A DNA stretch of 64,000 bases from an uncultured Candidatus Babeliaceae bacterium. GTDB lineage: Bacteria > Babelota > Babeliae > Babelales > Babelaceae. Of the stretch, positions 15,109-60,304 are shown in pieces (position 1 is the first letter of the stretch; every line of letters begins with the position of its first letter). The stretch is from the NCBI GenBank assembly GCA_964549625.1, contig CAZJVA010000003.1, positions 12,967 to 76,966 of the forward strand. Direction: 5' to 3'. The notes under the pieces were generated by a model. The model was not told the DNA's origin. It was given only the letters and a program-made list of their open reading frames with translations, and ran no database searches. The translations under genes were made by a program, and so were the position numbers.

Positions 15109-15119
15109 ATACCCCGTTT

Positions 15120-15147: not shown

Positions 15148-15259
15148 GATTTTCTTCAAAGTGGCTAGTTGCAGGGGGCAAGGGTTTGTTTGGGGGGGGG
15201 GCGGAGTATTTTTGAGTTTAGGACGCGGCGGAGCGCGGTGTGTTAATAACCTTGTGATA

Positions 15260-21746: not shown

Positions 21747-21799
21747 TGTGCTACTATTATGGGGCAAAACGTACCACTCTCATCTTCATTGTAAAAACG

Positions 21800-23707
21800 A
21801 TGCCATCGTATGTAAAGAAACTTTTTAGTATAAGTTTGCTTGGTTTTTTGGGTCTGCTAAGTGGGCTTTTTTTTTATGGAAAAATACACTTTTTCCCTGA
21901 TTTTGAAGCGTTATCATATCATGGCTATGATAAACCAAGTGTAGTGTTGGACGTGCAAGGCAAAGAGATTTTTCGCTTTGAATTGGAGCATCGCCAGCCT
22001 GTTCAATTGTCTGATGTTTCTCCTCATTTAATTAATGCTTTTGTTGCCGCAGAAGATCGGCAATTTTTTGCTCACAAAGGCATTTCTTGGCGCGGAATAT
22101 TGCGCGCACTGTGGATTAATCTGCGCTCTCGGCGCGTTGCTCAGGGGGCGAGCACGATTACCCAGCAGTTGGTAAAAATGCGTTTTTTTTCAAATCAACG
22201 GACTTTTGAGCGAAAAGTTCGAGAGCAGCTCGTTTCGTGGATTGTTGAGGGGTTGTATTCAAAAGAGCAGATTCTAGAGTCATATATTAATCATGTCTAT
22301 TTTGGCGCGGGTTTGTATGGAGTAGAAGCGGCGGCTAAGCGTTTTTGGGGTATTTCTGCGCATGAGCTTTCTCCGGCGCAGGCAGCTTTGCTTGCTGGTA
22401 TTGTAAAATCACCGCAGGCTTATTGTCCGCTATATAGCGCCGATCGTGCCCAAAAGCGCCGCAATATTGTTTTATCGAGCATGCACATTTGCGGCTATCT
22501 AAGGGAAGAAGAATATTTGGCTGCCTCAAAAGAGTTAGTTTTGAGTAGTAATGCTGATCTGTCAAGCCGAAAGGCGGGCGGTCATCTGCGCGAAATGCTT
22601 CGACAATTTTTGGAGGAACGTTTTGGTCGTGAGCGTTTATATAGAGATGGTCTGCTGATTCAAACAACTATTGATTCTTCTATGCAAGAGTGTGCAGAGG
22701 AGACTTTTAGAAGTCATATTAAGGCTTTGCGTAATAAAAAGTCTTCGGTAGACGGCGCATTGATTGTGCTTGATGGCGAAAGTGGCGCATTACGGGCATT
22801 AGTTGGGGGGTATGATTTTTCGGAGTCTCAGTTTAACCGGGCGATACAAGCTAAACGGCAGTTGGGATCGTTGATTAAGCCAATTGTGTATTCTGCGGCT
22901 ATATCTTCGCTCGGTGTTTCTTTTGCAGATGTTCGTATCGATGAACCCTTAGATGAGTTGTATGGGTGGTCGCCGCGCAATGTAACTCGTCGACATGATG
23001 GGCCAATGTCTTTGGCTCATGCGCTTGTTGTTTCAAACAACATTATTCCCGTTAGGCTATTCTTTGAAGTCGGTCCCAAACCTATTATTGCATTGGCTGA
23101 GAGGCTGGGGTTGCCGGGTCCAATGGAGCCGTATCCTTCTTTGGCCCTTGGTTGTGTTGAGTGTGCGCCTCTTGAGGTTGCAAAGATGTTTAATGCGTTT
23201 GCGCAACAAGGGTTGGTCAAGCCGGTCTATTATGTTGAATGGGTAAAGGATGCGGGGGGCAAGAAGATTTTTAGGCGCTATGGCCAAGATATGCCTGGGG
23301 TGCCCTGGACAATAAGTAGTCAGGTATTGTGGATTTTACGTGCAATTGGCAAGAGGTTATCTCGTTTGCGTCCTAACAAGTGGGTTGCTGGCGATTTTGC
23401 ATGCAAGACAGGGACAACAAACCAGCAGCGTAGCTGTTGGTTTGCAGGAGCGACTCCTCGGTATACTGGGGTTGTTTATCTGGGCTGTGATAACAACGAT
23501 TCTTTGGAAGGCGTGGTATATTCTGGTCGGCATGCAATGCCTATTTTAGTTGATGTATTGCGACGGTATTCTGCTCCTGGCGATCGTTTTTATTATGCGC
23601 CGGGTTTGTCGCCTGAGCATATAGATCCTCAAACAGGACGGATGCTTGATGCAAGTGATCCTTCTGCGTACGAGATTCTCAAAGAGAAATTCGTAGTGTG
23701 CGGCTAA
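21800..23707 (+). CDS. mrcA: Class A penicillin-binding protein (GT51 transglycosylase plus transpeptidase)
   Basis: N-terminal TM is LFSISLLGFLGLLSGLFFY. GT51 motifs are AAEDRQFFAHKGISWRGILRA and GASTITQQLVK. Transpeptidase motifs are SLIKP (SxxK), SNN and KTGT. I prefer ATG 21800 (MPSYVKK). Confidence 0.9.
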   Translation: MPSYVKKLFSISLLGFLGLLSGLFFYGKIHFFPDFEALSYHGYDKPSVVLDVQGKEIFRFELEHRQPVQLSDVSPHLINAFVAAEDRQFFAHKGISWRGILRALWINLRSRRVAQGASTITQQLVKMRFFSNQRTFERKVREQLVSWIVEGLYSKEQILESYINHVYFGAGLYGVEAAAKRFWGISAHELSPAQAALLAGIVKSPQAYCPLYSADRAQKRRNIVLSSMHICGYLREEEYLAASKELVLSSNADLSSRKAGGHLREMLRQFLEERFGRERLYRDGLLIQTTIDSSMQECAEETFRSHIKALRNKKSSVDGALIVLDGESGALRALVGGYDFSESQFNRAIQAKRQLGSLIKPIVYSAAISSLGVSFADVRIDEPLDELYGWSPRNVTRRHDGPMSLAHALVVSNNIIPVRLFFEVGPKPIIALAERLGLPGPMEPYPSLALGCVECAPLEVAKMFNAFAQQGLVKPVYYVEWVKDAGGKKIFRRYGQDMPGVPWTISSQVLWILRAIGKRLSRLRPNKWVAGDFACKTGTTNQQRSCWFAGATPRYTGVVYLGCDNNDSLEGVVYSGRHAMPILVDVLRRYSAPGDRFYYAPGLSPEHIDPQTGRMLDASDPSAYEILKEKFVVCG

Positions 23708-31905: not shown

Positions 31906-32820
31906 ATGCGTTACGAAAATTTATTACATGCCATTGGTCATACGCCGTTGGTTCGTGTTCCTTTTGATGTTCCTCCGCGGGTCTATGCAAAGCTTGAATA
32001 TATTTCTCCTGGGGGAAGTATAAAAGATCGCTCAGCTTATTTTATGGTTCAGCAAGCTGAAAAGGAGGGGCTTTTGCGTCCAGGTGGAACGATAATCGAA
32101 GCTTCCTCGGGTAATCAGGGGATTGCTGCGGCCATGATCGGCGCTGTTAAGGGGTATAAGGTTATTATTACTACGACTGAAAAAGTGAGTAAGGAAAAGT
32201 GGGATACGCTGAAAGCGTATGGAGCTGAGATGGTGATGTGCAAGCAGACTCTTGATTTGGGTGACCCAGAGGGATATTTTGAGGTTGCACGACGTATTCA
32301 TGAACAGACGCCGAACTCTCTTTTTATGGCGCAATATTTTAATAAAAAGAATCCACAGGGACATTACTACTCTCTTGGTCCCGAGGTTTGGGATCAAACG
32401 GGAGGCCAGCTGACTCATTTTATTGCAGCGATGGGTAGTTGCGGGACTGTCGGTGGTGCAGGAAAGTATCTCAAGGAACTTAATCCAAATGTTACTGTTG
32501 TTGGTGTTGATTCAGCACTTTCGTATCGTTCTACGGGTGGAAATCCAAAGCCGAATAAATTAGAGGGGATTGGTGTTAGTTCCGATTCTCCGCTTTTGGA
32601 TGAGGCTCCTGTTGATGAGATTATTACTGTCCAAGATGATGATGCGTTATCTATTATGAAGCGTCTTGCAAGAGAATATGGTTTTTTGGTTGGGCTTTCA
32701 AGTGGTGCCGTTGCTCATGCGGTATATGAGTATGCCAAAAAGCTTTCGCCCGATGATTATGTAGTCGTAGTTTTTGCCGATTCTGGCCGTGCTTATTTGA
32801 CTAAAGGGTTCTATAATTAG
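31906..32820 (+). CDS. PLP-dependent cystathionine beta-synthase / cysteine synthase family enzyme, copy A
   Basis: GGSIKDRSA (PLP-lysine motif) and EASSGNQGIAAA are present. EKVSKEKWDTLKAYGAEMV, PNSLFMAQYFNKKNPQGHY and SGRAYLTKGF resemble the CBS catalytic core more than E. coli CysK (comparison from memory). Confidence 0.88.
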   Translation: MRYENLLHAIGHTPLVRVPFDVPPRVYAKLEYISPGGSIKDRSAYFMVQQAEKEGLLRPGGTIIEASSGNQGIAAAMIGAVKGYKVIITTTEKVSKEKWDTLKAYGAEMVMCKQTLDLGDPEGYFEVARRIHEQTPNSLFMAQYFNKKNPQGHYYSLGPEVWDQTGGQLTHFIAAMGSCGTVGGAGKYLKELNPNVTVVGVDSALSYRSTGGNPKPNKLEGIGVSSDSPLLDEAPVDEIITVQDDDALSIMKRLAREYGFLVGLSSGAVAHAVYEYAKKLSPDDYVVVVFADSGRAYLTKGFYN

Positions 32821-33274: not shown

Positions 33275-34189
33275 ATGCGTTACGAAAGTCTGTTACATGC
33301 CATTGGTCATACGCCGTTAGTTCGTGTTCCTTTTGATGTACCTCCTCGGGTCTATGCAAAGCTTGAATATATTTCTCCTGGGGGAAGTATAAAAGATCGC
33401 TCAGCTTATTTTATGGTTCAGCAAGCTGAAAAGGAGGGGCTTTTGCGTCCAGGTGGAACGATCATCGAGGCTTCTTCGGGTAATCAGGGGATTGCTGCGG
33501 CCATGATTGGTGCAGTTAAGGGATATAAGGTTATTATTACGACAACTGAAAAGGTTAGTAAGGAGAAGTGGGATACGCTCACCGCGTATGGTGCCGAAGT
33601 TGTCATATGTAAGCCAACGCTAGATCTTCATGATCCTGAAGGCTACTTTGAGGTTGCGCGGCGTATTCATGAACAGACACCGAACTCTCTTTTTATGGCA
33701 CAATACTTTAACAAAAACAACCCGTTGGGTCACTACTATTCCCTGGGGCCTGAGATATGGGATCAAACTGGTGGTCAATTGACCCATTTTATTGGTGCTG
33801 TAGGTAGTACTGGAACTGTTGGCGGTGCGGGGCGCTATATTAAGGAGCGAAACCCGAATGTTGTTGTGGTTGGCGTTGATTCGGCTACATCGTATCGTTC
33901 TACGGGAGGAAATCCAAAGCCCTATAAATTAGAGGGGATTGGTGTTGATTCAGATTCGCCGCTTTTGGATGAGGCGCCAATTGATCAAATTATTGGGGTA
34001 CATGACGATGATGTATTTCCTCTTATGAAGAAGTTGGCTCGAGACTATGGTTTCTTGGTTGGGCCTTCAAGTGGTGCTGTTGCCTATGCCGCATATGAAT
34101 ATGCCAAACAGCTTACACCCGATGATTTTGTGGTGATTGTTTTTGGTGATTCTGGGCGTGCCTATTTGACCAAAGGATTTTATAGTTAA
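33275..34189 (+). CDS. PLP-dependent cystathionine beta-synthase / cysteine synthase family enzyme, copy B
   Basis: 304 aa, collinear with copy A and carrying the same motifs. The N-terminal third is nearly identical; the C-terminal two thirds have diverged. Confidence 0.88.
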   Translation: MRYESLLHAIGHTPLVRVPFDVPPRVYAKLEYISPGGSIKDRSAYFMVQQAEKEGLLRPGGTIIEASSGNQGIAAAMIGAVKGYKVIITTTEKVSKEKWDTLTAYGAEVVICKPTLDLHDPEGYFEVARRIHEQTPNSLFMAQYFNKNNPLGHYYSLGPEIWDQTGGQLTHFIGAVGSTGTVGGAGRYIKERNPNVVVVGVDSATSYRSTGGNPKPYKLEGIGVDSDSPLLDEAPIDQIIGVHDDDVFPLMKKLARDYGFLVGPSSGAVAYAAYEYAKQLTPDDFVVIVFGDSGRAYLTKGFYS

Positions 34190-37498: not shown

Positions 37499-40120
37499 TT
37501 ACTGCGTTTTTTTGAGACATATTTGAACGTCGCTAAATGGAGCGGTGATCTGGGTTTTTTTAGCGCGAAAATATGTGCGCAGATCTGTTTGATCACGCAT
37601 GTCCTGTTGTAATTTAATAAATTTATTTCCGCAAAGTGTAAGTACGTTTTGGGCCTTGGCTTCCAGCTTTTTAAGTTTTTTAAAGTTGTCATCATAGGTG
37701 TCGGTTAGGCCGAGCTCTTCGAGGATTTGCTTTGCTCCTCCATTGATAAAAGATGAGTCGTAGAACTGTGCAAGAGCCTCATTAATTGGTTGGAGCTGGC
37801 CTGTTAGCTTGAGTTTCGTTACTAAATCTTTTATTTCGTATTGATTTTTCTTCTGCTCCAGAAAGTCAAATATAGTGTTAAGTACGTAGTGCTGATGAAT
37901 CCATTCGTCAGTATCGGGGATATGCTCTTCACTAATGAGCTTGAGACTGTCGTACAAAAGGTTCTCTACAATAAGAGATTGCTTTTCGGTAGAAAGGTTG
38001 TCTGGTATTTGTGCATAAGAATAATACTCTTCTTCAGTGAGTTCTATTTGTGGTTTTTTCAGCAGAAGGCTGGTGAGGGAGTAAAAGATCTTCGAGTGTT
38101 GCTGCTTTTGCTTTTCTTTTAACTGCTTGGTTAAGGTTGTTTTTTTGAGTGATGTTAACAGGTGTTCAACTGAAGCTTTTTGTTCTGGGGTGTTCATGTA
38201 TTTAATAAGCCGATATAGCGTCTTGGGGTTGACGGAGAGCAGTGAAATTTTTGATTGCGGGGTTAATGTTGTGAGCATGTTTACTAATTGAAGAAACGCA
38301 CCTGTGCTCAGATTTCTTATTAAGGGAGAGCTTTCGGTCTCTGATTGGCTGGTGCATCGTGGTATGTCAACGTAGATTGAAACAAGTTTTTGTAAAAGCT
38401 TGTTTTTTGTCTTTGCAGGGAGAAGCTTAATTGTTTCTAGCAAATGCGAAGCGCTAATTTCATCAAGAAGGTAACCGCCCAAAAACGAATCATTCCGTAA
38501 AATGGCCCATTGTATTTGTGGCTCTAATTGTTGAAGGCTGTTGGCAAGGTTTGGCGCAACGGAAGAAGTTTGTCTGATGTGAGGGATGACATCTTGAAAA
38601 AGCTTGCTAGCAAAGAATCGTGCCTGGTTTTGTAAAGAGAATGTGCTGATATGCTTAGCGAACTTTTTCCAAAAGGTTGAACTGAGCTTTGATGCTGTGT
38701 AGTAGGGCTCAAAAATATTGCTATTGCAATCAGTTTCATCTTGCAATAGATATTCCATTTGGTCTTCTTCGGGCATCGTAGCAATTGTTTTTAAAAATTC
38801 TATGGCGACGGCGTCATCGATGATATGGTTCCATAATGTTGTTTTTTTCAAAAGGGCGTATTTAGCAAAGTTGGTTCGTTTTTGAAGTTCTTGCAAAAAG
38901 GTAATCTGTGTTTTGGGGGAAAATTTTTGTTGAAGGCGTGAGCCTTGAGAATAAAAAATTAGATCAGAGTATGTTTTCTGCAAGCCGTTTTCTATGTGAA
39001 AGTGTGCCCCTAGTTCCATAATAAGGGGGCGCATGAGGGGTTGCTGAAGTTGTGAGATAAATGTTATCTCATTGGCTTCTTGAGTCGTATTTAATAATTC
39101 TAGCAAGTTTTTTTCATTTTTTTCCTGCTCTGCTTGATGCTGTGATGCAGGTAGCTCTTTTTGCCAGTATGTGTTGCAATCCAGGCCACGGATAAGTTCA
39201 TCAATATAGTCGGCAATTACGATACGTTTCTCAGTTTTTAGCTCATTATTTAGAAGATTTTTGTGTTGTTTGTTTGCGAGCGCGCAGAGGGTTTGGCGGC
39301 TTGTTTGATCATAGCCCGCAAGTGTTATACGTCCTATTATTTTCATAATATGAAGGTTGGTAATTTTATTATCTGTTTGAAGGACGAGGCTTTTTAGGTG
39401 GAGGAGCAGTTGGCGGCAAAATTTTTGTTTTTCCTTGATTTCTGTTCGCAAAAGGAGCAGAAATGTTTCGTTCAAAAATTGTGCTTGTTTGCGTGGCGGT
39501 AAATTTGATATTTCGGCTAAAATCAGTGCAAATTCTTCGGGTTGGCTTATTTGATTTAGGCGTGTTGCCAGCTCACTAAGTTTGTTTATTTCTATTTGAT
39601 GTGCATGAATCTTGTTTGGGTTGGTCTGCGCAGCTCTTACTTGGCATATTTGGTTTATTTCTTTTGGAAATAACGCGTAGGTAGCAGGTTGTACGAGAGA
39701 TTCATATAGTGGTTGCCATGCCGTTTGATGACTAAAATCTTCGAATATTGGTTCTAGAGCGAGCATCATAAAGACGCGTTCTTTCGGCGTGCTCTGTAGT
39801 AATTGGTTGGCAAGCCAGTTGAATATTGCGGTGTGCTTGCTCAGGGGAACGAGTTCTCTAAATTCGGCAGCAATTTCTGCAGCAAGGGTGTTGGCTTTTT
39901 TAGCGTTGTTTAATTTTTCAGTAAGCAACGCGATTTGTTGCATAGGAAGGAGTGTGCGATATTGGTTCGTTGCTGTGTCTCTTGATTTAAATTCTTCGAT
40001 AGCGTTTTCAGTGTTTTCAATTCGACGTTTTTTCTGGGGTGGTTGATTGCCGGCTGGTAAAAACGAAAAATGAGTAAAACCTATTAGGATCAGCAAAAAA
40101 AAGTTACAAAAGTTTTTCAT
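37499..40120 (-). CDS. Secreted hypothetical protein, long PPxKKRR-motif paralog
   Basis: I prefer ATG 40120 (MKNFCNFFLLILIGFTHFSFLPAG followed by NQPPQKKRRIEN); the track starts at 40252. The body is helical and repeat-like. The C-terminus carries HQHYVLNTIFDFL... and PFSDVQI. Confidence 0.75.
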   Translation of the reverse strand: MKNFCNFFLLILIGFTHFSFLPAGNQPPQKKRRIENTENAIEEFKSRDTATNQYRTLLPMQQIALLTEKLNNAKKANTLAAEIAAEFRELVPLSKHTAIFNWLANQLLQSTPKERVFMMLALEPIFEDFSHQTAWQPLYESLVQPATYALFPKEINQICQVRAAQTNPNKIHAHQIEINKLSELATRLNQISQPEEFALILAEISNLPPRKQAQFLNETFLLLLRTEIKEKQKFCRQLLLHLKSLVLQTDNKITNLHIMKIIGRITLAGYDQTSRQTLCALANKQHKNLLNNELKTEKRIVIADYIDELIRGLDCNTYWQKELPASQHQAEQEKNEKNLLELLNTTQEANEITFISQLQQPLMRPLIMELGAHFHIENGLQKTYSDLIFYSQGSRLQQKFSPKTQITFLQELQKRTNFAKYALLKKTTLWNHIIDDAVAIEFLKTIATMPEEDQMEYLLQDETDCNSNIFEPYYTASKLSSTFWKKFAKHISTFSLQNQARFFASKLFQDVIPHIRQTSSVAPNLANSLQQLEPQIQWAILRNDSFLGGYLLDEISASHLLETIKLLPAKTKNKLLQKLVSIYVDIPRCTSQSETESSPLIRNLSTGAFLQLVNMLTTLTPQSKISLLSVNPKTLYRLIKYMNTPEQKASVEHLLTSLKKTTLTKQLKEKQKQQHSKIFYSLTSLLLKKPQIELTEEEYYSYAQIPDNLSTEKQSLIVENLLYDSLKLISEEHIPDTDEWIHQHYVLNTIFDFLEQKKNQYEIKDLVTKLKLTGQLQPINEALAQFYDSSFINGGAKQILEELGLTDTYDDNFKKLKKLEAKAQNVLTLCGNKFIKLQQDMRDQTDLRTYFRAKKTQITAPFSDVQICLKKTQ

Positions 40121-40203
40121 AAAAAAGGGGGCCTTGCGACTAGTGTTTATTGATAATATAGGTAAAAGCATACAATTTTTATTACGTTTGGTAAATATTG
40201 GGC

Positions 40204-41280
40204 CTACAGAAGGGGGCGCTGCTTTTGTATTTGCTTTTTCGAATAACGCCAAAGAGTATTGTGGTTGGAAAGTTTTTGTAAGACAAATTGACGGTCGTAT
40301 TCTCTTATTACTGCTTGTTCGTGGGCTTCTGCGAGAGCTATGGGATAGCCTTTTCCTTTACTCATTTGATCAGTAATCCATTGCATGCAGGCGTGTAGAG
40401 TTGATGGTTCTTTTGCGATCCATGATGGCACTTCGATTCGTCCGATTTCTTCGTTGTGATTGAGATAAACAAAATACGGGTGCAGCCTTTCGGGATATAG
40501 CCTGCTTATTGGTGCAGAAGTTTTGAATACGGGGGTGTAGTTCATATTAGGGAGCGTCTTTTGTAGCACTTCTAAATCGGTGTAGCCGTAGCAGGTTGTT
40601 TTTAGATTTGGGTTTTTGGCGACGATAAGGTCGATAAGGTCTCGACTTTTAGGTGCACTGATATAACTGCAATAGAAAGTCATATGATGCGAAATTTCTT
40701 GAAGGGCATGTAGATATTCGTAGAGAAAGTAGTCGGCATGTGGTGCGGGATTTTCTGGGGTTCCCAGGTGCCAAAATATTAGGGAACCATCAAAGACAAT
40801 AAGGTTGGGTTTTTGTTCTGCAATGGTGCGGGCGTATTTAAATTCATGGAGTGATCGCAGGGCGTCTGTAGCGCTTTCGCTGAGTGCCTCTTTTTGTAGG
40901 TGGGGCGGTAGGTCTTGCCGGGTGTAAATAATCGGATGGGATCCTAGCAAAGCAGTGCTTTTGGTTTCGCCATATGCAAATCCTGCATAACCAATATTAA
41001 TCAGTGCGGCGTGAACGCCAAAGTGACGGTCTGGATAGATTTGTGATCCATCAATAGCATAGATAGTGTACGGCTTGCTGGCTGGCGCGCAGGTGGTAAA
41101 TCCGTTGAGTGGTCCGTCCCACGTGGCAATAGGTTGTTTGGTCTCTGAAAAATTTTTATAGGTTGCGGTTTGGATGGAGCGCCAAGCGGTTAATACTTCG
41201 TTACATGTTTCTTGAAACCAAGCGTCTTCGTTTTTAAGGGCTTGAGATATTTTTTGTTCTAGCGCAAGGCGGTCAAGCAT
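40204..41280 (-). CDS. NurA-domain-like nuclease (candidate)
   Basis: YAIDGSQIYPD, LIVFDGSLIFW and the C-terminal KGKGYPIALAEAHEQAVI match my memory of the NurA (PF09376) pattern: DGS, DGsL and GYPy.L..A...A. The start is ATG 41280 or 41307, and it overlaps the stop of the upstream SufU-like gene. Confidence 0.5.
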   Translation of the reverse strand: MLDRLALEQKISQALKNEDAWFQETCNEVLTAWRSIQTATYKNFSETKQPIATWDGPLNGFTTCAPASKPYTIYAIDGSQIYPDRHFGVHAALINIGYAGFAYGETKSTALLGSHPIIYTRQDLPPHLQKEALSESATDALRSLHEFKYARTIAEQKPNLIVFDGSLIFWHLGTPENPAPHADYFLYEYLHALQEISHHMTFYCSYISAPKSRDLIDLIVAKNPNLKTTCYGYTDLEVLQKTLPNMNYTPVFKTSAPISRLYPERLHPYFVYLNHNEEIGRIEVPSWIAKEPSTLHACMQWITDQMSKGKGYPIALAEAHEQAVIREYDRQFVLQKLSNHNTLWRYSKKQIQKQRPLL

Positions 41281-42098: not shown

Positions 42099-42962
42099 TT
42101 ATTCTTGGATGGTCTTTGTTAGGGTTGTTTTGAACTTATCAATATCGAGGAAGTTCATCGCATAGGGGTTATGGGTACGCAGCTCTGCGTCGTTTTTGGT
42201 GAAGGCCTCGAGTATTTTTTTGCAAAAAGCATGGAATGAAGCCTGTGTTAGCGAAAAAAATGGTTCATTGGGAACATCCGTATTAAAAAAGTTTTCTTTG
42301 CGTGGCGCGGTGCAAAAGATATTCATATTTACATCGACTAGCATGTAGCGATTGGCAAGTTCGCAATGATCCATGTATTCGTAATATTCTTGTGCATTAT
42401 TTTCGTTGCATTCAGCTCCAAATGAAAATCCAACTTCTTTTATTTGGTTTGGATCTTTTATATGTAGTTTTTCAACGAGATACTTCTTTATTTTTTTTAT
42501 CGATTTTATTTGGTTCATTTTTATTCTTTGGGCCCATTCGGGGGCTACGGTTGTGTTGGCAAATATTATGCCTGAGATTGGGGAGTTAGTAGCAGAATTT
42601 TTTATTTTTAGGACTTCTCGAGCTATTTTGTTAAGTTGTTCTATTTTATTGGCAAGACTGTAGTGAAATATTATTGTTTTTTGACCATTGGTAAGGGCAA
42701 TGAGATGGCATGGATAAAGTGGGCCGACGAGAGCTTTTTTTGTTGATCCTTTTTCTAGCACCATATATCGGGATTCTAAGAGTAGTGTTGTATCTTTTTT
42801 TTCTTGTTCGTCTAATCCTTTGTAGGGAAATGGCAGGACGATAGTTTTTTCTGTGCCGGGCTTTAGAATTGAGGGGAATGTATGGGTATAAAATTGCCCA
42901 GAAAATACCGCTAATGGACAAAGTGAAAAATAAAATACTACGGCGAGTTTAAAAGTTGACAT
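42099..42962 (-). CDS. Secreted Cys/His-motif ORFan family, paralog 1 of 4
   Basis: Signal-like N-terminus MSTFKLAVVFYFSLCPLAVFSG. Family motifs are VLPFPYKGLDEQEKK, YMVLEKG, ALVGPLYPCHLIAL, IIFH and CTAPRKENFF. Confidence 0.8.
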   Translation of the reverse strand: MSTFKLAVVFYFSLCPLAVFSGQFYTHTFPSILKPGTEKTIVLPFPYKGLDEQEKKDTTLLLESRYMVLEKGSTKKALVGPLYPCHLIALTNGQKTIIFHYSLANKIEQLNKIAREVLKIKNSATNSPISGIIFANTTVAPEWAQRIKMNQIKSIKKIKKYLVEKLHIKDPNQIKEVGFSFGAECNENNAQEYYEYMDHCELANRYMLVDVNMNIFCTAPRKENFFNTDVPNEPFFSLTQASFHAFCKKILEAFTKNDAELRTHNPYAMNFLDIDKFKTTLTKTIQE

Positions 42963-43123
42963 AACTGCTCCCAGCGTGAGGACTTTTTAATTTATATAGT
43001 CTTATAATATTTTTAATTTTCAACTTGCCAAGTTTTTTCAGCATAGATAAAGATTTCTTCGAGAATTTTTATGTACAACCAGCTCTCGACTAAGGCGAGT
43101 CAAGGGCTATTTGTTTTGCGCGT

Positions 43124-43636
43124 TTAGTTGGCAGGTTTCTCAAGTACGCAAAGGTTTCCGAAGCATTGTTTTTCTTTAAAGCCATGTTTTTTATAGAGCG
43201 CATATGCACCTGTATTTTCAACCTTGTTTGTATTTAGTCGGACTGTGGAATTTTTTAGGGAGGAGTTTAGCACATGGTTCAGGAGCTGGGTGCCAATACC
43301 TTGTGTTCGACAATTGTTCCGTACGAAAAGGGTCTCAATATAAGCATTTACTGGGGTTAGTTTGATAAATGCAATCATACCCACAACAATGGAGTCTTTG
43401 ATTGCAACGATTATTTGATATTTCTCAAACAGAGCTTCTATGTAGCGCGCTATTCGCTCGTTGCAAATAGTTGGGTCTTTGAAAAGGCTTTCCTTGGCTT
43501 CGGCCGTTTGGTGTAATGTGATACATTGAGGTAAATGGGTGTCTGTGTTCGCTGGAGTAGTTTTTACTGCAGTATGGATTATGTTTTTTGTACCCAATAA
43601 TAGAATGAACGCGGTTAATAAAAGGTTTTTTTTCAT
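43124..43636 (-). CDS. GNAT-family N-acetyltransferase with an N-terminal signal peptide
   Basis: N-terminus is MKKNLLLTAFILLLGTKNIIHTA. GNAT motif A is VRNNCRTQGIGTQLLNHVL, and the C-terminal motif is GAYALYKKHGFK. Confidence 0.85.
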   Translation of the reverse strand: MKKNLLLTAFILLLGTKNIIHTAVKTTPANTDTHLPQCITLHQTAEAKESLFKDPTICNERIARYIEALFEKYQIIVAIKDSIVVGMIAFIKLTPVNAYIETLFVRNNCRTQGIGTQLLNHVLNSSLKNSTVRLNTNKVENTGAYALYKKHGFKEKQCFGNLCVLEKPAN

Positions 43637-43645
43637 GTTTTTTTC

Positions 43646-44458
43646 TTATGCTAACTCGATAAAGTCGTCATGGTTATAGTGAGTAAAAGGTGAGGTGAAT
43701 TTGCTTTTTATTTCGGCTTTTTTGTAATTGCCCATAGCATCTTGAGTTTTCCTGCGGCGTTCTTCTATGTGCAGCTCGTTAAAAGTAGTCTTATTGAAGA
43801 TGTTTTCATGCATAAAACATATGCTCATTGGTTTAAATTCAGTGTTGAAGAAGACGCCAAGTTCAGCATATTCGTATTCGCCGAGTTCGTAATCTTGGTA
43901 CGGCGAGTGATATATTTTTGCGGCGATTTGTTTGCGATCGGCAATTTTGAAAAACGAAACGATGCAGTCTTTGATAGCTTTAACCTTTTCTGATTGTTTT
44001 TGACCTGTATAGGCTTTTGGGAAGATCCATTCAAACCGTGGGTCACATGCATTAGTGAAGATGAGGCCTGTAATATCCTTAGAATTTTGTATCTTGAGCT
44101 TTGCTTGTGCGTGTTCGCATAGCTTCTTAATGCTATTTGAGTCATGCAGGTGAAAAAAAACAGCGGTCCCTGTTTGGGTGTTTTTAAGTGCAACAAGTTT
44201 GCATGGTTGCAATGGACCAATAGCAACGGTTTTCTGAGAGTCTTTGCTTAAAGAGGTGAAGTGATATTCGGGTATAATAACGATGTTTTTTCGTTCTTCA
44301 TTAGATAAGTGTTTGTATTGAAATGGCAAAACAACGATTTTTTTCGATTGGTTGGGGAATAAGGTGAGTTTGTTCTGGCAAGTATAGAGCCTTGTTGCTG
44401 TGCAGGTTATTAATAAACAGCTGCTTGCGATTTTAAAGAAAGGGTGTTTGGTATTCAT
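43646..44458 (-). CDS. Secreted Cys/His-motif ORFan family, paralog 2 of 4
   Basis: Family motifs are VLPFQYKHLSNEERK, VAIGPLQPCKLVAL, VFFH, ITGLIF and ICFMHENIF. The N-terminus is hydrophobic. Confidence 0.8.
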   Translation of the reverse strand: MNTKHPFFKIASSCLLITCTATRLYTCQNKLTLFPNQSKKIVVLPFQYKHLSNEERKNIVIIPEYHFTSLSKDSQKTVAIGPLQPCKLVALKNTQTGTAVFFHLHDSNSIKKLCEHAQAKLKIQNSKDITGLIFTNACDPRFEWIFPKAYTGQKQSEKVKAIKDCIVSFFKIADRKQIAAKIYHSPYQDYELGEYEYAELGVFFNTEFKPMSICFMHENIFNKTTFNELHIEERRRKTQDAMGNYKKAEIKSKFTSPFTHYNHDDFIELA

Positions 44459-44494
44459 GATAATTTTCTCTTTATGATGTAAAATTGTTTGTTT

Positions 44495-45361
44495 TTATTT
44501 GATTTCTACGAATCCTGAGTATTCGTAATATTCGTACGCATAAGGATATTCTTGTTGAACTTTTTTAATGTTTTCTCGCTTGTTTAGTTCTTCTCGAAAT
44601 TTGCGTAGGCGTTTCTTTCGCGGTAATTTTTCAAGTCCAGGAATTTGAAATGCATTTTCATGCATAGGGCAGCAGCATGTTTTGTTTAAGTCTTTGTCTA
44701 CGATTATGAACGATTGGGCAAATGCATAATCTTTCAAGCTGGCATTATTGATGACTGGCATTATTTCGCCGACAATTTGGTCATGATCTTTTTCTGTAGC
44801 TGTTTGTTGAATTCCAAAAAATTTAACTATTTTGTTCCCAATGAATTTTAGTTTATCTCGCTGTGTTGCGTGCGTGCTTTGGTAGGGAAAGGGTCTTTCG
44901 GAGAGTTCTTTGTTAATAGCCTCGATATACCGGGAGGTTGCGGCGTAAAGAAAGCATTCTATATTGCTTGGACTTTTGATAGGGGCGAGTGCTTTTTCTG
45001 CTGTTTGACACAATTTAGTTGTATTGTTGCCATCGCTTTTATGAAAGATAGCAACTTTGCCATTCTCCTTGTTTTTGATAATAACAAGCTTGCAGGGACT
45101 GAGTGGGCCGACCAGTGCTTTTTTTGTGCAATTTTTTTCTAGAACGGTGTAATGGCATTCGGGAATGAAAATGAGATTGCCTTTTTCGTTTTCTGTTAAA
45201 GTCTGGTATTTGAAGGGTAAGCGAACCTCGGTTGGCGCCGTCCCTGGTTTTAGGACGAGGTGCTCGCTTATTCCTGCAAAAATTGACGCACCAACAAGTG
45301 CGGCCGATGCGCCGATAATAAGGCGAATGCTGATAATCGGTTGTTTCATAATCATACTCAT
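44495..45361 (-). CDS. Secreted Cys/His-motif ORFan family, paralog 3 of 4
   Basis: Family motifs are RLPFKYQTLTENEKG, YTVLEKN, ALVGPLSPCKLVII, AIFH and CCCPMHENAF, plus a basic PRKKRLRK stretch. I prefer ATG 45361/45349 over the track start 45433, which would overlap paralog 4. Confidence 0.8.
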   Translation of the reverse strand: MSMIMKQPIISIRLIIGASAALVGASIFAGISEHLVLKPGTAPTEVRLPFKYQTLTENEKGNLIFIPECHYTVLEKNCTKKALVGPLSPCKLVIIKNKENGKVAIFHKSDGNNTTKLCQTAEKALAPIKSPSNIECFLYAATSRYIEAINKELSERPFPYQSTHATQRDKLKFIGNKIVKFFGIQQTATEKDHDQIVGEIMPVINNASLKDYAFAQSFIIVDKDLNKTCCCPMHENAFQIPGLEKLPRKKRLRKFREELNKRENIKKVQQEYPYAYEYYEYSGFVEIK

Positions 45362-45392
45362 GGTCTTTGAGTGTACTTTACGTGTTTTCTTG

Positions 45393-46214
45393 TCATGTAT
45401 TGTTTTCAGCAGGAAAGAAACCGAGTTCTTCATAAGTCGGTCCTTTTATTTTGAAGTGTCTTAGTATTTTTTCGGGGGAACATTTTTTGAAGTATTTATT
45501 CATATAAATTTCTTGTTGCTTTTCGGGGGAAGATGTTTCTAGATGTGGGATATTAAAAATGTTTTCTTGAATCGGGCAGATACTGTTTTTGTTGAGTTTA
45601 TTGTCAATAAGAACATAGAGATGTCCCAGGAAAGCGTAAGGATCAAAAAGTTCATTCTTTGTGTGAAATATTTGTGCTTGAATTTGTTCATGGTCCTTAA
45701 TTTTGAACCAATTAACTAGCACATTTTTTATGTAGTTAATTTTTAGTTTTTGCGTTGGATGAAAGCCTAGAATTTTATGCCAGGCATATTTTTTATCCAC
45801 CTCAGGCGATGATACGCTGAATATAAAGCCACGAATGTCTTCTGGTTTAATGTTTTTTCGGAAATTATCCTGCGCTATTGCGCAAAGTTTTTCTGAACTG
45901 TTTCCATCATTTTTGTGGAAAATGATGGCCTTATTAGTTTTGCTATCTTGAAGTGCAACAAGCTTGCAGGGCTGTAGGGGACCGACAATCGCGCACTCTG
46001 TTTTTCCTTCCTCGAGGACCATATAGCGTAGTTCAGGAACATACATTAATTTGCTTTTTTCTTGCGCTGTTAATGAACGATAGGCAAACGGCAATAAGAT
46101 TTCTTTTGTGCTTGTATTTTCGGGTGGGATTGATAGGTGATATGGGACGCCGCTATGACTTTGCTTGCACCATACTATACTGAGCAATAGAAAGAGTGTT
46201 CGGGCATTTTTCAT
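45393..46214 (-). CDS. Secreted Cys/His-motif ORFan family, paralog 4 of 4
   Basis: N-terminus is MKNARTLFLLLSIVWC. Family motifs are LLPFAYRSLTAQEKS, YMVLEEG, AIVGPLQPCKLVAL, IIFH, IRGFIF and ICPIQENIF. Confidence 0.8.
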   Translation of the reverse strand: MKNARTLFLLLSIVWCKQSHSGVPYHLSIPPENTSTKEILLPFAYRSLTAQEKSKLMYVPELRYMVLEEGKTECAIVGPLQPCKLVALQDSKTNKAIIFHKNDGNSSEKLCAIAQDNFRKNIKPEDIRGFIFSVSSPEVDKKYAWHKILGFHPTQKLKINYIKNVLVNWFKIKDHEQIQAQIFHTKNELFDPYAFLGHLYVLIDNKLNKNSICPIQENIFNIPHLETSSPEKQQEIYMNKYFKKCSPEKILRHFKIKGPTYEELGFFPAENNT

Positions 46215-46403
46215 CGTATATTTTTCTTTGGTGGTTTTTGTATGTTGGTATTTTAGGATAGTGATCTTTCTTGGTTTTGTCGATTTTGAAGCAGGCTTTT
46301 GCCCAGGTTCCTGATGTGGGGTGTCCTTGAGTTTTAGAGTCTATGTTGCTAGGGTAAGTTTTCCCCCTGTAGCAGGTTGCATTGAGTTTATGGTAGGTGT
46401 GGT

Positions 46404-48087: not shown

Positions 48088-48203
48088 GGTACTGCGTTTT
48101 TTGTTTTTTTATTGACCTCGATCTTTTTTAAAGTTGCATCTTGTATTTTATAGGGGTAATCCGAGAGGGTATTTTAGTTCAATCTGAAAAGCAAGGTGCG
48201 ATT

Positions 48204-48545
48204 ATGAAAAAGCGTACATGTCGTATGGTATTAGTTGGTGTTTGTTCATTGTTGGCAACGGCTCCTGTTGCAGCGCGGCGTGTTCAGCGTTCATGTCCGC
48301 TTGCTAAGGAAGATCCAACGACTTGCCCTAATTATGATAAAGATAAAGGGCCAGGCTTAGGTATTGGCCGTAAAGATGGCCATGGGCAAAATGAAGGTCG
48401 CGGTAGCGGTCCTCGCGATGGTCGTGGACAAGGTTGTGGCTTAAATAAAGGACGACGCCGCGGAAAAGGTTCAGGTCCTCGTGACGGTCGCGGCCAAGGA
48501 CGTGGCCTAGGGCGTCGTGATGGAAGCGGTGCAGGACGTAACTAG
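48204..48545 (+). CDS. Small secreted Arg/Gly-rich repeat protein
   Basis: AAGGTG lies upstream of ATG 48204. The signal is MKKRTCRMVLVGVCSLLATAPVAA. GSGPRDGRGQG[CR]GL occurs twice within an RG-rich tail. A strong terminator follows. Confidence 0.6.
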   Translation: MKKRTCRMVLVGVCSLLATAPVAARRVQRSCPLAKEDPTTCPNYDKDKGPGLGIGRKDGHGQNEGRGSGPRDGRGQGCGLNKGRRRGKGSGPRDGRGQGRGLGRRDGSGAGRN

Positions 48546-48621: not shown

Positions 48622-50388
48622 TTATCCGAGTTTTTGAACTTTTTTGCGTGTAATGACTGCTTTTATTGCATCAATTATGGTTGGTGCAAGTTCGTGGGCT
48701 GCACGTTCCGTTAGCCCCGTTAAACGATCGATCTGTGCAGGGGTATAGGCAAAGTTTCCTGTGTTAATAAATCCGCCGCCGTTGCGTAGAAGTTCCTGGG
48801 GGTCAAAGGTCGGATCGTAATCATCATTTTTAGCAAGCGGCACGTAGATGATGATAGGTGCGGAAGAATCAGGTCCGTCATAAAAAATGGAGTATTTTTC
48901 TGTTATTGCTTGGTAATAGTCTATGGTTGGGAATAATTTGTTGGCTGCTCGGGCACTATCTTCTAATTTATGTAGGTTTGGCGCATTGAAACAATCGGCG
49001 CTTGCTTCAACAATAATGATTATATCGATGGTTCTTTCATCTCTTAAAACAGGTTCGATTGGTATATTTTGTGCGGCACCGGCATCAATATGAATATGGA
49101 ATTGAGAGTGTGGATCGCCGCCGGCTTGAAGGTTGCGTACTGGATTGCGGATGAACGCTGGAAAAAGTTGAAATTCTCCGAGCGGTGTTTGCATGATTGC
49201 GGTCTGAAGTGGTTTGAACAGAAAGCTTGGCCTGAGCTCTTGGGCAATTAATGGAAAAATTTGTTTGAGTGCAAGGGTGAACGCTGATCCCCAAATGCCC
49301 ATGAGATACCCTAGTGAAAGTGATGGATGCTTGGTAGTTGATTTGCCACACTTGAATTTGCGCCCAAAACCAAACGTTGGACAGGCGCCATTAATGCCAT
49401 AATGCATAACTTCAAACGGGGTGAATTCTACCTCATGAAATTTAGTATTTGCCTCGTAGGGGTGCACAGACATTCCGATAGGAAGCGGGACGGTGCCCTG
49501 GCTTACATAGTCGGCAAATGAGGCAAGCGTTGTTTGGGCATAGTGTCCCTTGGTGTGATCCTCAAAAAGTTCCAGGCCAATGAGTAAGCCGTAAAGATCA
49601 ATGATAGTAGGTATTTCGTGGTAAGCAAGTCTTCGGATAAATGTCTCAGCAATGGTACCCATAAATGCGGCGAGATTTTGTCCGCCTTTAGTGAGGGCTT
49701 CATCAAGGAGTGTTGAAGCGACGCGTTTTTTAAATCCTGGGTAAAAATCAAGGTACGGTTTTTTTGAGGCGAGCCATGAGCCAATAAGCCAGGTTGATCC
49801 AGATACGCCACCAAGGTAGTGGACGGTGTCAAGGAGTGAGGTGTCGGCTAGGCCTTGGCAGAAGCCTGCAGTTGACAGCATGGCACGAAAACCTCCGCCG
49901 CTTCCAATAACCGCAATGCGTGGAATAAGGTCTTCGTCAACTTCTTCTTGTAGGTATTCTTCGATGACTTTTTTTGCATATTTGTTGCGTGCTTCTAAAT
50001 ATTTTTGTTCCGCTTGTGGAAGTGGTCGATTACCTTCCCATACGCGTCGAATGCGGGCCTCGGACCATTTGGTAGGTTCGCTATTGAGGAGCAGATGGTA
50101 TAAAAATGCAAGGAAAAAACGAGGCACCGGATATTGTGCGCCGTCGATGGTGAGGTTACCTTCGAGTGATGATGATGTTCCAGAGCGTGTTCCTGGGGTA
50201 AAGGAAAATGAGATATCATCGTAGTGTCGGGAGAGCGTCTCTACGATTTCTTGGTCGCTTACTTCGGGCACCTGGATAAAGTTTTCAATTTCTTGGTCGG
50301 TTATTGCGCGTGAGGTATTGGAAATAGAGAGGGCTAACGCCATGATTATGATCAGGGGTGTTAGTGAAAGTGCTTCTTTAAAAGACAT
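48622..50388 (-). CDS. Secreted cPLA2-type (PLA2_B, group IV-like) phospholipase/lysophospholipase, copy A
   Basis: Signal-like N-terminus LTPLIIIMALALSISNTSRA. VIGSGGGFRAMLSTAG...YLGGVSGSTW matches cPLA2-alpha GSGGGFRAM...GLSGSTW (Arg200/Ser228 region, from memory). IIDLYGLLIG, VPLPIGMSVH, EVEFTPFEV, LGYLMGIWGSAF and HIDAGAAQNIP (catalytic Asp region) are also present. Confidence 0.9.
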   Translation of the reverse strand: MSFKEALSLTPLIIIMALALSISNTSRAITDQEIENFIQVPEVSDQEIVETLSRHYDDISFSFTPGTRSGTSSSLEGNLTIDGAQYPVPRFFLAFLYHLLLNSEPTKWSEARIRRVWEGNRPLPQAEQKYLEARNKYAKKVIEEYLQEEVDEDLIPRIAVIGSGGGFRAMLSTAGFCQGLADTSLLDTVHYLGGVSGSTWLIGSWLASKKPYLDFYPGFKKRVASTLLDEALTKGGQNLAAFMGTIAETFIRRLAYHEIPTIIDLYGLLIGLELFEDHTKGHYAQTTLASFADYVSQGTVPLPIGMSVHPYEANTKFHEVEFTPFEVMHYGINGACPTFGFGRKFKCGKSTTKHPSLSLGYLMGIWGSAFTLALKQIFPLIAQELRPSFLFKPLQTAIMQTPLGEFQLFPAFIRNPVRNLQAGGDPHSQFHIHIDAGAAQNIPIEPVLRDERTIDIIIIVEASADCFNAPNLHKLEDSARAANKLFPTIDYYQAITEKYSIFYDGPDSSAPIIIYVPLAKNDDYDPTFDPQELLRNGGGFINTGNFAYTPAQIDRLTGLTERAAHELAPTIIDAIKAVITRKKVQKLG

Positions 50389-50400
50389 ACTGTTTCCTTT

Positions 50401-52107
50401 TTAGCTGTTTTGTGGGCGGATGCCTCGTTCCTTTTTATCAATAGCTGCTAATAGCTTCTGTATAAGATCATGGTGCATTTGTGTTGCCGCTGTTTCGAAT
50501 AAGCCTGCTAATAGGTTGTATTGTTCCCTTGTGTAGAAAAAGTTCATCATGTGCAAAAAGTTGTTTTGGTAGGGATAGATCAGCGGCCATGGATCAAATT
50601 CTTCAGAGTAGCTTGGGTTTTTAACGAGAGGAACATAAAATACGATTGGGGCTGCGGAGTCTGGACCATCATCGAATACAGAAAAGGGGTTGCTGCGCGC
50701 GCGTTCGTAGTCGATGCGGGGGAATGGTCTATTGTTGGCGCGTGCCACATTTTCAAGTATTTGAAGGCTTCCAGACCAATTAACATTACTTCCGCTTTCG
50801 ACCAGTATAATAACATCAATGTTGCGATCAGGGTTGAGTGTTGGAAGCATCGGCGCATCGTAATCAATTCCAGCATCGATGTAGGCATGGAATCGAGTGT
50901 TTTTGTCTGGCGAAGTATTCATGCCTCGTGTGTAATTGCGGACAAATGCAGGGAAGAGGCGACTTTCGCCTAAGCAAGATTTTTCGATCAAATCAAAAAT
51001 CGGCATGAAGAATGGTTTAGGTTTTAGAAAATCTTTAATCGTTGGAATGTAAGTCTTTACCTTTTGAGAAAATGCAGAACCACATATGCCCATAAGGTAT
51101 CCAATAGTTTGTGCCGGATGCCTGCTTAGTGATTTTCCATTATAAAAGTCTCGACCAAACCCAAATCCTGGGCAGCCAGCATCGAGTCCGTAGTTGATAA
51201 CTTCGAAAGGGTTGAATTCAACTTCGTCGCCTTTACGGTTTTCGTGTTGAACAATTGCGGTTCCTATTGGCAGGGGTACGGTTCCTGTTGCTACGTGGGG
51301 TTTTATGCTTGATAAGGTGGTCCACGCATAATTCTTTTTTGATTTGGTTTCGAATAGGTGGAGCCCGAGCATGAGCCCATAGAGATCAATACTTGTTGGT
51401 ATTTCGTGAAAGGCCAGGCGTCGGAGAAATGCTTCGGCAATTGAGCCTGAGAAAGAGGCAATATTGAGCGCAAATTCTTTGGTCTCAACACCAAGTATTC
51501 CCTTGAGTACGCGTTCTACAAATTCGGGATAAAATTCTGTATAAGATTTTTTAGATACCATCCAGGGATAGAGAAGCCATGTTGAACCGGATACTCCGCC
51601 AATCATATGGACGGCGTCCAGGAGGCCTAGCTGGTTGAGTTTGTTAGTAAAGCCAGCGAAGGATATCATTGCGCGAAAACCACCGCCACTGCTGATGAGC
51701 GCTACTCGTGGTGTGTTTTTGGTCGCAACGGGTTTTCCGAGAACTTTTTCGAGCGCCTGGGCAGTGAATATATCTCGTTTGTTCCAAAACTCTTTTTCTT
51801 CTGTGCTGATACTATGGTTTTTTCCAAAGTGCCGTACGCGAGCGGTTTGGTGCTTATTGGGGTCTTTATCAAGGATGATGTTATATAGGATACCAAGCAA
51901 AAATCGGTTCAGAGGAAGTGCTAGGTCACATTCAGGAATGGGGAGGGTGGCTTGTAGTTCTGGTGTTCGATGGGTATTTTCTTCAAAAACAATTTCAGGA
52001 AAATGTCTTTGAATAGTATTTTTTAATTCTTCATCAGACGGTGTTTGTGCAATGAGATAGGGAAAGAAGAAAAATAGTCCAAGAATTAGCCTGGATGAAT
52101 GCTTCAT
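50401..52107 (-). CDS. Secreted cPLA2-type phospholipase/lysophospholipase, copy B
   Basis: N-terminus is MKHSSRLILGLFFFFPYLIAQ. It is collinear with copy A: LISSGGGFRAMISFAG, MIGGVSGSTW, IDLYGLMLG, VPLPIGTAIV, EVEFNPFEV, IGYLMGICGSAF and YIDAGIDYDAP. Confidence 0.9.
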   Translation of the reverse strand: MKHSSRLILGLFFFFPYLIAQTPSDEELKNTIQRHFPEIVFEENTHRTPELQATLPIPECDLALPLNRFLLGILYNIILDKDPNKHQTARVRHFGKNHSISTEEKEFWNKRDIFTAQALEKVLGKPVATKNTPRVALISSGGGFRAMISFAGFTNKLNQLGLLDAVHMIGGVSGSTWLLYPWMVSKKSYTEFYPEFVERVLKGILGVETKEFALNIASFSGSIAEAFLRRLAFHEIPTSIDLYGLMLGLHLFETKSKKNYAWTTLSSIKPHVATGTVPLPIGTAIVQHENRKGDEVEFNPFEVINYGLDAGCPGFGFGRDFYNGKSLSRHPAQTIGYLMGICGSAFSQKVKTYIPTIKDFLKPKPFFMPIFDLIEKSCLGESRLFPAFVRNYTRGMNTSPDKNTRFHAYIDAGIDYDAPMLPTLNPDRNIDVIILVESGSNVNWSGSLQILENVARANNRPFPRIDYERARSNPFSVFDDGPDSAAPIVFYVPLVKNPSYSEEFDPWPLIYPYQNNFLHMMNFFYTREQYNLLAGLFETAATQMHHDLIQKLLAAIDKKERGIRPQNS

Positions 52108-58514: not shown

Positions 58515-58601
58515 GCGGAAGTGGTGAAATTGGTAGACACGCAGCTTTGAGGGGGCTGTGGGAGAAATCCCGTGGGGGTTCGAGTCCCTTCTTCCGCACC
58601 A
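58515..58601 (+). tRNA. tRNA-Leu (anticodon GAG), class II
   Basis: GCGGAAG-TG-GTG-AAATTGGTAG-ACAC-G-CAGCT-TTGAGGG-GGCTG-TGGGAGAAATCCCGT-GGGGG-TTCGAGT-CCCTT-CTTCCGC-A-CCA. Confidence 0.95.
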
Positions 58602-60227: not shown

Positions 60228-60304
60228 GGCGACGTAGCTCAGCTGGTTAGAGCGGCGGAATCATAATCCGTAGGTCCGGGGTTCGAGTCCCTGCGTCGCC
60301 ACCA
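60228..60304 (+). tRNA. tRNA with CAU anticodon, elongator type (Met; Ile2-lysidine not excluded)
   Basis: GGCGACG-TA-GCTC-AGCTGGTTA-GAGC-G-GCGGA-ATCATAA-TCCGT-AGGTC-CGGGG-TTCGAGT-CCCTG-CGTCGCC-A-CCA. G1:C72 is paired and there is no GGG:CCC anticodon stem, so it is not an initiator. The 5' half resembles E. coli elongator tRNA-Met. Confidence 0.88.

Follow-up and report, generated by a model that had tools for sequence, protein, structure and literature searches.

A tandem array of four Cys-His proteins with signal-like N-termini and an NTAN1- and CheD-like predicted fold in an uncultured Babeliaceae bacterium

The gene array and its embedded acetyltransferase

A stretch of 64,000 nucleotides from an uncultured Candidatus Babeliaceae bacterium (NCBI GenBank assembly GCA_964549625.1, contig CAZJVA010000003.1, positions 12,967 to 76,966 of the forward strand), hereafter the window, carries on its minus strand an array of four related genes, W1 to W4, with a gene for a GNAT acetyltransferase embedded among them. 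W1 (42099..42962) encodes 287 aa and is the most divergent, W2 (43646..44458) encodes 270 aa, W3 (44495..45361) 288 aa and W4 (45393..46214) 273 aa, W4 being the first gene after a divergent EamA gene. An alternative start of the W3 open reading frame (ORF) at 45433 would give a protein of 312 aa; the start at or near 45361 fits the signal-like segment and the W3 orthologue of a related contig (L001, GCA_964598055.1) better. The initial annotation had described four same-strand paralogs, and all four ORFs were found at these positions. Pairwise BLASTP gave E values from 3e-21 (W1 versus W2, the most divergent pair) to 1e-46 (W3 versus W4), indicating that the four are homologous rather than similar by chance, and exactly four copies of the family were detected by a six-frame hidden Markov model (HMM) scan of the window.

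Global identity among W1-W4 is 28-30%, with 33 invariant columns in the four-way alignment. These include L43, P44, F45, Y47, L50, E54, G80, P81, L82, P84, C85, F99, H100, E223, N224 and F226 (W1 numbering). The Cys, His and Glu that are central to what follows are Cys85 (42708-42710), His100 (42663-42665) and Glu223 (42294-42296) in W1; Cys86 (44201-44203), His103 (44150-44152) and Glu218 (43805-43807) in W2; Cys90 (45092-45094), His107 (45041-45043) and Glu235 (44657-44659) in W3; and Cys83 (45966-45968), His100 (45915-45917) and Glu217 (45564-45566) in W4. The Cys-His spacing, earlier given as 15-17 residues, is 15 in W1, where the hairpin loop is two residues shorter, and 17 in W2, W3 and W4. 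All the other motifs of the initial annotation were likewise seen in the four-way alignment, the Y[MT]VLE motif being degenerate in W2 (HFTSLS); what did not hold is the Cys of C-x(2,3)-[KHQ]EN, since Ala stands at the corresponding place in W1 and the column reads C59/S25/D13 among the 102 sequences of the family alignment. The basic stretch PRKKRLRK noted in the third paralog was located at W3 residues 247-254 (44600-44623), and the L001 orthologue of W3, which is 65% identical, keeps it as PRKKRVPK.

Each of the five products of the array opens with 1-2 K/R, after which mean Kyte-Doolittle hydropathy over 10 residues reaches 2.1-3.1; in W4 this signal-like N-terminus is MKNARTLFLLLSIVWCKQSHS, then G. 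Small residues precede a conserved Gly in three paralogs (VFS, SHS and IFA, each followed by G), and 115 of the 140 homologs with an initial Met have a signal-like N-terminus. Signals were called by a hydrophobicity heuristic (10-residue window, Kyte-Doolittle). The hydrophobic start previously ascribed to each paralog is confirmed by this heuristic, which is passed by all five array proteins and also by 18 of the 40 other ORFs of the window. A lipoprotein reading was rejected on inspection of the sequences, as no canonical lipobox precedes a Cys in any paralog.

The GNAT gene (43124..43636, minus strand) begins 9 nt past the W2 stop; the gaps in the order W4-W3-W2-GNAT are 31, 36 and 9 nt, and W1 is separated from the GNAT gene by 161 nt. 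Its product of 170 aa, with the signal-like N-terminus MKKNLLLTAFILLLG, exceeds the Pfam thresholds for Acetyltransf_7 (53 bits, cutoff 27), Acetyltransf_1 (51.4 bits, cutoff 20.7) and Acetyltransf_10, and its acetyl-CoA motif RTQGIG (residues 110-115, 43292-43309) fits R-x-x-G-x-G. The protein thus resembles GCN5-related N-acetyltransferases in domain and motif and differs from them in its signal-like start. No equivalog cutoff was reached against NCBIfam, where the best model was RimI (45 versus 86 bits). The top PDB sequence matches are KAT2A/GCN5, PCAF and Naa50 (E 1e-5 to 3e-4), so that the closest solved structures by sequence are eukaryotic, despite the many bacterial GNATs in the PDB. 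A GNAT with its own signal-like start next to W2 is therefore present as had been claimed, whereas its description as unusual was not upheld, because 18 of the 40 other window ORFs also pass the heuristic.

Two promoter-like sites were noted on the minus strand, both as consensus matches only. TCGACA-17-TATCCT (46255..46283) lies upstream of W4 and is a candidate for the start of a W4-W3-W2-GNAT transcription unit; TTGGCA-16-TATTAT (43004..43031), with 10/12 matches, lies in the 161-nt gap upstream of W1. Promoter and terminator scans returned nothing exceeding the shuffled background.

Family conservation, genomic distribution and predicted fold

Searches of W1-W4 with phmmer and hmmsearch against Pfam, NCBIfam and PDB sequences gave no meaningful match, in line with the earlier statement that no named domain is recognisable, and no known non-enzymatic domain was matched either. 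Weak matches to DUF3337, Cdc13_OB2, Potempin C and IgG hybrid were dismissed as inconsistent between paralogs. Word-indexed protein searches returned 2, 4 and 7 proteins, the first two sets consisting of the queries themselves and near-orthologues, and a metagenome scan with the four-paralog alignment found only one already known contig. An exhaustive HMMER search against 1.84 billion cluster representatives returned 194 representatives with a cutoff of E<=1e-3; with E<=1e-10 the number was 112. Their length is mostly 260-300 aa. The family is rare and unannotated; the clusters looked up have 1-3 members each, without names and without a UniRef source.

Conservation across these divergent homologs is concentrated at a few positions. 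The Cys is retained in 140 of 149 homologs, the His in 144 of 150 and the Pro before the Cys in 144 of 149, so that both proposed active-site residues are kept in other genomes. In the 102-sequence alignment Tyr45, Gly78, Pro82, Cys83, His100 and Glu217 (W4 numbering) are each conserved in at least 90%, at a mean column identity across the family of ~12%, and there is only one near-invariant His. In a few homologs Asn, Ser, Thr or Phe replaces the Cys. The C-terminal motif around the Glu reads [S57/N19]-[I37/T36]-[C59/S25]-[P57]-x-x-[E92]-[N/D]-x-[F72] (n=102).

Four homologs carry at the C-terminus a zf-MYND domain, a finger of eukaryotic type that mediates protein interactions, giving the architecture signal, family domain, zf-MYND. 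These proteins (P0155, P0156, P0157 and P0067, on contigs L004-L007) are 364-434 aa long with a signal-like N-terminus, and their genes are single-copy in bacterial contigs beside housekeeping genes for ClpB, UvrB and TonB/ExbBD. A further homolog of 732 aa (P0048, L012 6576-8774; contig GC 50%) contains two tandem copies of the domain, each with the PC...FH pair. Contigs L009, L010 and L012 have a GC of 40-50% and encode RelA/SpoT, BolA, DksA and tricarboxylic acid (TCA)-cycle enzymes. With members in genomes of this kind, the family is not confined to one lineage, and these contexts suggest that it reaches bacteria outside the clade of the window.

Among GTDB species representatives the only match is a syntenic contig (L002) recorded as Candidatus Dependentiae bacterium UBA12474. 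The genes on it run in the order PLA2_B, PLA2_B, a Gly/Arg-rich protein, a membrane protein, EamA, a W1 orthologue (65% identity), GNAT, a second family member, NifU-like, NurA and a protein of 866 aa. L011, which is more distantly related, has this arrangement too, with one family member in the interval from EamA to NifU, so the EamA-NifU site holds 1 copy in L011, 2 in L002 and 4 in the window. The GNAT of L002 is syntenic, signal-bearing and 55% identical to that of the window; in L011 a different signal-bearing GNAT lies beyond EamA, on the opposite side from the family member. An adjacent GNAT was not found beside the homologs in L004-L007, L009, L010 and L012, and the linkage is not general. 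The L001 orthologue of W4 (1409-2306; 76-80% identical) carries a 2-bp deletion after FHKND (GAT--TAA), just past the putative catalytic His, and is either a pseudogene or an assembly error. Together, the copy numbers of 1, 2 and 4 and this frameshift look like birth-and-death evolution.

AlphaFold2 predicted W4 from the 102-sequence alignment with a predicted local distance difference test (pLDDT) score of 89.3 and a predicted template modelling score (pTM) of 0.87, and W1, as an independent second model, with a pLDDT of 84.6 and a pTM of 0.83. For both models the top Foldseek match in the PDB was human NTAN1 (6A0E; W4 E 6.1e-8, W1 E 6.4e-6; probability 1.00, ~187 aligned columns), followed by Thermotoga maritima CheD (2F9Z_C; W4 E 4.5e-5, W1 E 1.4e-3), with template modelling (TM) scores of 0.63 and 0.54 when normalised to CheD. 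YfiH/DUF152 proteins came next (E 1.8e-4 to 0.1), then weakly CNFy/CNF1 and BLF1 (E 0.02-0.3), and these five were the only significant PDB folds for the two models, nothing outside this group being retrieved at E<1e-3. Both models have the alpha-beta-beta sandwich of the CNF1/YfiH-like superfamily of cysteine hydrolases. Among predicted viral structures (BFVD), the significant matches were giant-virus proteins of 250-300 aa, the top one (Moumouvirus) being named CheD by its source. According to DSSP, the Cys directly precedes a beta-hairpin strand in both models, and the return strand ends one residue after the His (strands 84-90 and 95-101 in W4); from this topology the two side chains would be neighbours across the hairpin. 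C75/H92 of NTAN1 and C27/H44 of CheD are laid out in this way as well (PMC7022378). The CheD/CNF1-like deamidase fold proposed in the initial annotation is supported by these models, in which CheD and CNF1 were retrieved, with NTAN1 rather than either of them as the nearest relative.

NTAN1 (PF14736) and the family are of similar size (~250 aa mature in the family, 310 aa in NTAN1) and share the Cys-His spacing of 17, hhalign placing the two residues in register. CheD ends after the core, whereas NTAN1 and the family both extend ~100 residues further, and in NTAN1 this added C-terminal segment lies over the active site. They differ in that identity is ~10-12%, that NTAN1 is eukaryotic and cytosolic whereas the family is bacterial with a predicted signal peptide, and that the family has an extra N-terminal LPFxY module, some MYND fusions and no Ser at position Cys-6. 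CheD (PF03975; 2F9Z chain C), the second-best fold match, also has a spacing of 17 with C27/H44 in register; it is a 157-aa cytoplasmic protein working with CheC and methyl-accepting chemotaxis proteins, while the family is ~100 residues longer, bears a predicted signal peptide and does not conserve Thr21 of CheD. Across the 102 members no Pfam match to CheD was obtained at E<=10, and no chemotaxis genes were found among the neighbours scanned (EamA, NifU, NurA, PLA2_B, LOG). CNF1, CNFy and BLF1 share the superfamily fold and are exported bacterial deamidases of host proteins, and neither CNF1 nor the family has a Ser/Thr third residue. Their structural similarity is nevertheless much weaker than that of NTAN1 and CheD, no sequence similarity was detected, Cys and His lie 15 residues apart in CNF1 and 12 in BLF1, and the CNFs are large AB toxins with translocation domains of their own. 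YfiH, PgeF and YlmD (DUF152, PF02578) likewise have the superfamily fold with lower TM scores (0.2-0.3); they are cytoplasmic, have an active-site zinc and act on non-protein substrates, and no Pfam match to PF02578 was obtained for the paralogs or the 102 members.

The register of the active-site residues was compared using query sequences checked against PDB entries (100% identity of NTAN1 with 6A0E_A across 310 residues; CheD was matched to 2F9Z_C). The triads are Cys75/His92/Ser69 for NTAN1 and Cys27/His44/Thr21 for CheD, both with a spacing of 17 and the third residue at Cys-6 (PMC7022378). By hhalign, C83 of W4 falls on NTAN1 C75, H100 on H92, G78 on G68 and E61 on Q51 (E 0.006), and C83/H100 fall on CheD C27/H44 (E 0.01); these weak alignments lie in the register that the fold match predicts. 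Direct phmmer searches of NTAN1 or CheD against the family were not significant, their best alignments being nonetheless in register. One member has N_Asn_amidohyd (PF14736) as its best Pfam match, with residues 46-121 on profile positions 9-90 (E 0.0035).

A second, co-linear hhalign segment places W4 S211-I-C-P-I-Q-E217 on NTAN1 S254-T-S-P-L-A-E260 (E 0.18, 7 columns only). In NTAN1, whose C75 and H92 are catalytic, E260 forms a salt bridge with the substrate N-terminal amine, and Ser254 and Thr255 bind the substrate backbone (PMC7022378). The likeness of the family C-terminal motif to this N-terminal-amine clamp is suggestive.

Proposed activity and alternative explanations

Given the fold, the register and the conservation described above, W1-W4 are probably exported amidohydrolases of the Cys-His type that act on peptides or proteins, the simplest case being deamidation of Asn/Gln. 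The Cys of GPLxPC would serve as the nucleophile and the His 15-17 residues on, in the neighbouring hairpin strand, as the general base. Together they would hydrolyse a side-chain carboxamide, converting Asn/Gln to Asp/Glu with release of ammonia, or a related C-N amide bond. The C-terminal region with the motif [SN]-[IT]-[CS]-P-x-x-E-[ND]-x-F and its near-invariant Glu may aid substrate recognition. Tandem duplication at a conserved position, flanked by the EamA transporter and NifU-like genes, gave rise to the array, and its old, divergent copies (~30% identity) probably recognise different substrates, with the exported GNAT as a possible second protein-modifying enzyme at the locus.

Cultured Dependentiae are obligate intracellular parasites of protists. 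Because of this lifestyle of a Dependentiae relative, the MYND fusions, the eukaryote-like neighbouring genes and the copy-number turnover, the most likely substrates would be host (protist) proteins, which would imply export beyond the periplasm. The idea of a host-directed effector locus put forward in the initial annotation is thus plausible; it is strengthened by the MYND fusions and the eukaryote-like neighbours and weakened by the commonness of signal peptides in this genome. In the cultured Dependentiae Chromulinavorax destructans, 44% of proteins/CDS have signal peptides, and its authors suggest Sec export, possibly with outer-membrane vesicles, as the delivery route of putative effectors (PMC6561590).

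Several observations weigh against the assignment of W1-W4 as exported deamidases of proteins. Only the fold core is common to the family and its matches, because query-normalised TM scores are 0.32-0.40 with a root-mean-square deviation of 4-5 A. The hhalign probabilities are 4-6%, so sequence similarity to NTAN1 or CheD is not significant alone, and the N_Asn_amidohyd match (17 bits versus a cutoff of 24) is below the gathering threshold, being found in 2 of the 102 members, with W1-W4 giving no match at E<=1. The third, His-orienting residue (Ser in NTAN1; Thr in CheD and BLF1) is missing from the family: position Cys-6 is V56/I27/L10 of 102, and NTAN1 Ser69 falls on Pro79 in the hhalign register. 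Thr73/Thr74 of NTAN1, which bind Asn, correspond to x-Pro in the family (Pro in 97 of 102). YfiH/PgeF and YlmD have the same fold, yet act on non-protein substrates. About 45% of window ORFs have a Sec-type signal, and such a signal guarantees only arrival in the periplasm. The Dependentiae assignment rests on a single record. In addition, orthologue identities of 65-80% fall within the 46-91% range of neighbouring genes, and accelerated evolution is not supported.

The commonness of the Sec-type signal, which is the only export evidence, bears directly on the main, though rather unlikely, alternative, namely that the proteins are housekeeping amidohydrolases of the periplasm or envelope, deamidating or cleaving amides of peptidoglycan stem peptides or envelope proteins, or turning imported free Asn/Gln and N-terminal Asn/Gln peptides into Asp/Glu and ammonia for nutrition. 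The organism makes peptidoglycan, as a class A penicillin-binding protein (PBP) gene is present in the window (21746-23707), and the fold relative YfiH/PgeF edits peptidoglycan precursors (PDB titles). The conserved adjacency to the EamA metabolite transporter would also suit such a role, as would a conserved Glu that perhaps binds a free alpha-amine and could equally accommodate free amino-acid amides. Nevertheless, paralogs of ~30% identity, a copy number of 1, 2 or 4 and a frameshifted orthologue are untypical of housekeeping enzymes, and zf-MYND fusions make little sense in the periplasm. The family is moreover absent from Pfam and NCBIfam and seemingly confined to rare uncultured genomes, and the YfiH matches are much weaker than those of NTAN1 and CheD.

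The dermonecrotic toxin related to the CNFs is a transglutaminase. An improbable alternative is that W1-W4 keep the fold and perform another reaction, as a protease or isopeptidase, a transglutaminase or a YlmD/FAMIN-like nucleoside enzyme. The CNF1/YfiH-like fold does host several reactions (YfiH amidase, YlmD with inosine; PDB titles), and both the Ser/Thr triad residue of NTAN1 and CheD and the Thr-Thr of NTAN1 are missing from the family. The only strongly significant structural matches are, however, the protein deamidases NTAN1 and CheD. The YfiH family has zinc at its active site (PMC7022378); with a single near-invariant His, W1-W4 and their homologs show no evident equivalent. Moreover, in CNF1 a backbone carbonyl takes the role of the Ser/Thr third residue, which is missing there too (PMC7022378); a similar solution is possible in W1-W4. 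It is very improbable that activity has been lost and that these are exported binding proteins or decoys built on the ancestral fold, as the absent third triad residue and the few replacements of the Cys might suggest, since 90-97% of ~150 sequences retain Cys, His and Glu at ~12% mean column identity, the hallmark of catalytic residues maintained by purifying selection.

Within the preferred assignment of W1-W4 as exported amidohydrolases, a narrower and distinctly unlikely version can be formulated, in which they would be N-terminal amidohydrolases analogous to NTAN1. The C-terminal Glu would grip the alpha-amine, and N-terminal Asn/Gln would be converted to Asp/Glu in the protist host; together with the GCN5/Naa50-like GNAT, the enzymes would rewrite host N-termini and redirect N-degron degradation, the divergent paralogs and MYND-fused forms selecting different substrates. 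This version is proposed because S-x-C-P-x-x-E aligns with NTAN1 S254-E260, and it is opposed by the replacement of NTAN1 Thr73-Thr74 by x-Pro in the family.

Deamidases are a recurrent weapon of bacterial pathogens, as exemplified by CNF1, BLF1, Cif, OspI and PMT; to our knowledge, all known CNF1-fold toxins target internal Gln. The fold, the reaction class and the existence of deamidase effectors are already known. New is a family without a sequence match to any model or structure in the libraries searched and unnamed in the sources looked up, in which a Sec-type signal and an NTAN1-like C-terminal motif occur together with the lack of a Ser/Thr triad residue, with MYND fusions and with tandem expansion beside an exported GNAT. 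The nearest structural relative of this bacterial family of ~190 clusters is the eukaryotic N-degron enzyme NTAN1, and the literature search found no paper on a bacterial NTAN1-like effector. If host proteins are indeed the targets, W1-W4 would represent a new effector class for Dependentiae-like protist parasites, a group with almost no description so far of how it manipulates its hosts. Should they be N-terminal amidases, they would, according to the literature searched, be the first bacterial effectors whose point of entry into the host N-degron pathway is its deamidation step. At a minimum, the family gains a predicted fold, putative catalytic residues and a testable reaction, and could be given its own domain-database model.

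Neighbouring genes and other features of the window

Several genes near the array also encode signal-bearing proteins. On the minus strand, an ORF of 917 aa (37499-40252), with no Pfam match, starts with the signal-like segment MKNFCNFFLLILIGFTHFSFLPAG, directly followed by PPQKKRRIEN (40013-40042), a stretch similar to a classical monopartite nuclear localisation signal. The KKRR motif is kept as PPQKKRRIEN in L002 (protein 65% identical) and as PAQKKRRIES in L011 (protein 29% identical), and the 917-aa protein is a candidate for export and nuclear targeting. Adjacent genes at 48622-50388 and 50401-52107 (minus strand) encode signal-bearing proteins of 588 and 568 aa that match PLA2_B (E 7e-27 and 2.5e-21), a eukaryote-type cytosolic-PLA2/lysophospholipase domain; the pair is syntenic in L002 and L011. 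Between W4 and this pair, a small signal-bearing protein encoded at 48141-48545 (plus strand) consists mostly of repeats rich in Gly/Arg, GRGSGPRDGRGQG; without a Pfam match, it is nonetheless present in L002 at 87% conservation. Two further paralogs of 304 aa lie side by side on the plus strand (31906-32820 and 33275-34189) and match the pyridoxal 5'-phosphate (PLP)-dependent family PALP (E 3e-69 and 2e-67).

Housekeeping RNA genes comprise a class A RNase P RNA (20974-21332, minus strand; 217 bits) and five tRNA genes (14876-15346, minus strand; 58515-58598 and 60228-60301, plus strand). The plus strand of the window has a GC skew of +0.21 and an AT skew of -0.17 throughout, the same for genes on either strand. 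Two thirds of the coding bases, and most of the genes, lie on the C/A-rich minus strand, and this strong asymmetry is independent of gene orientation.

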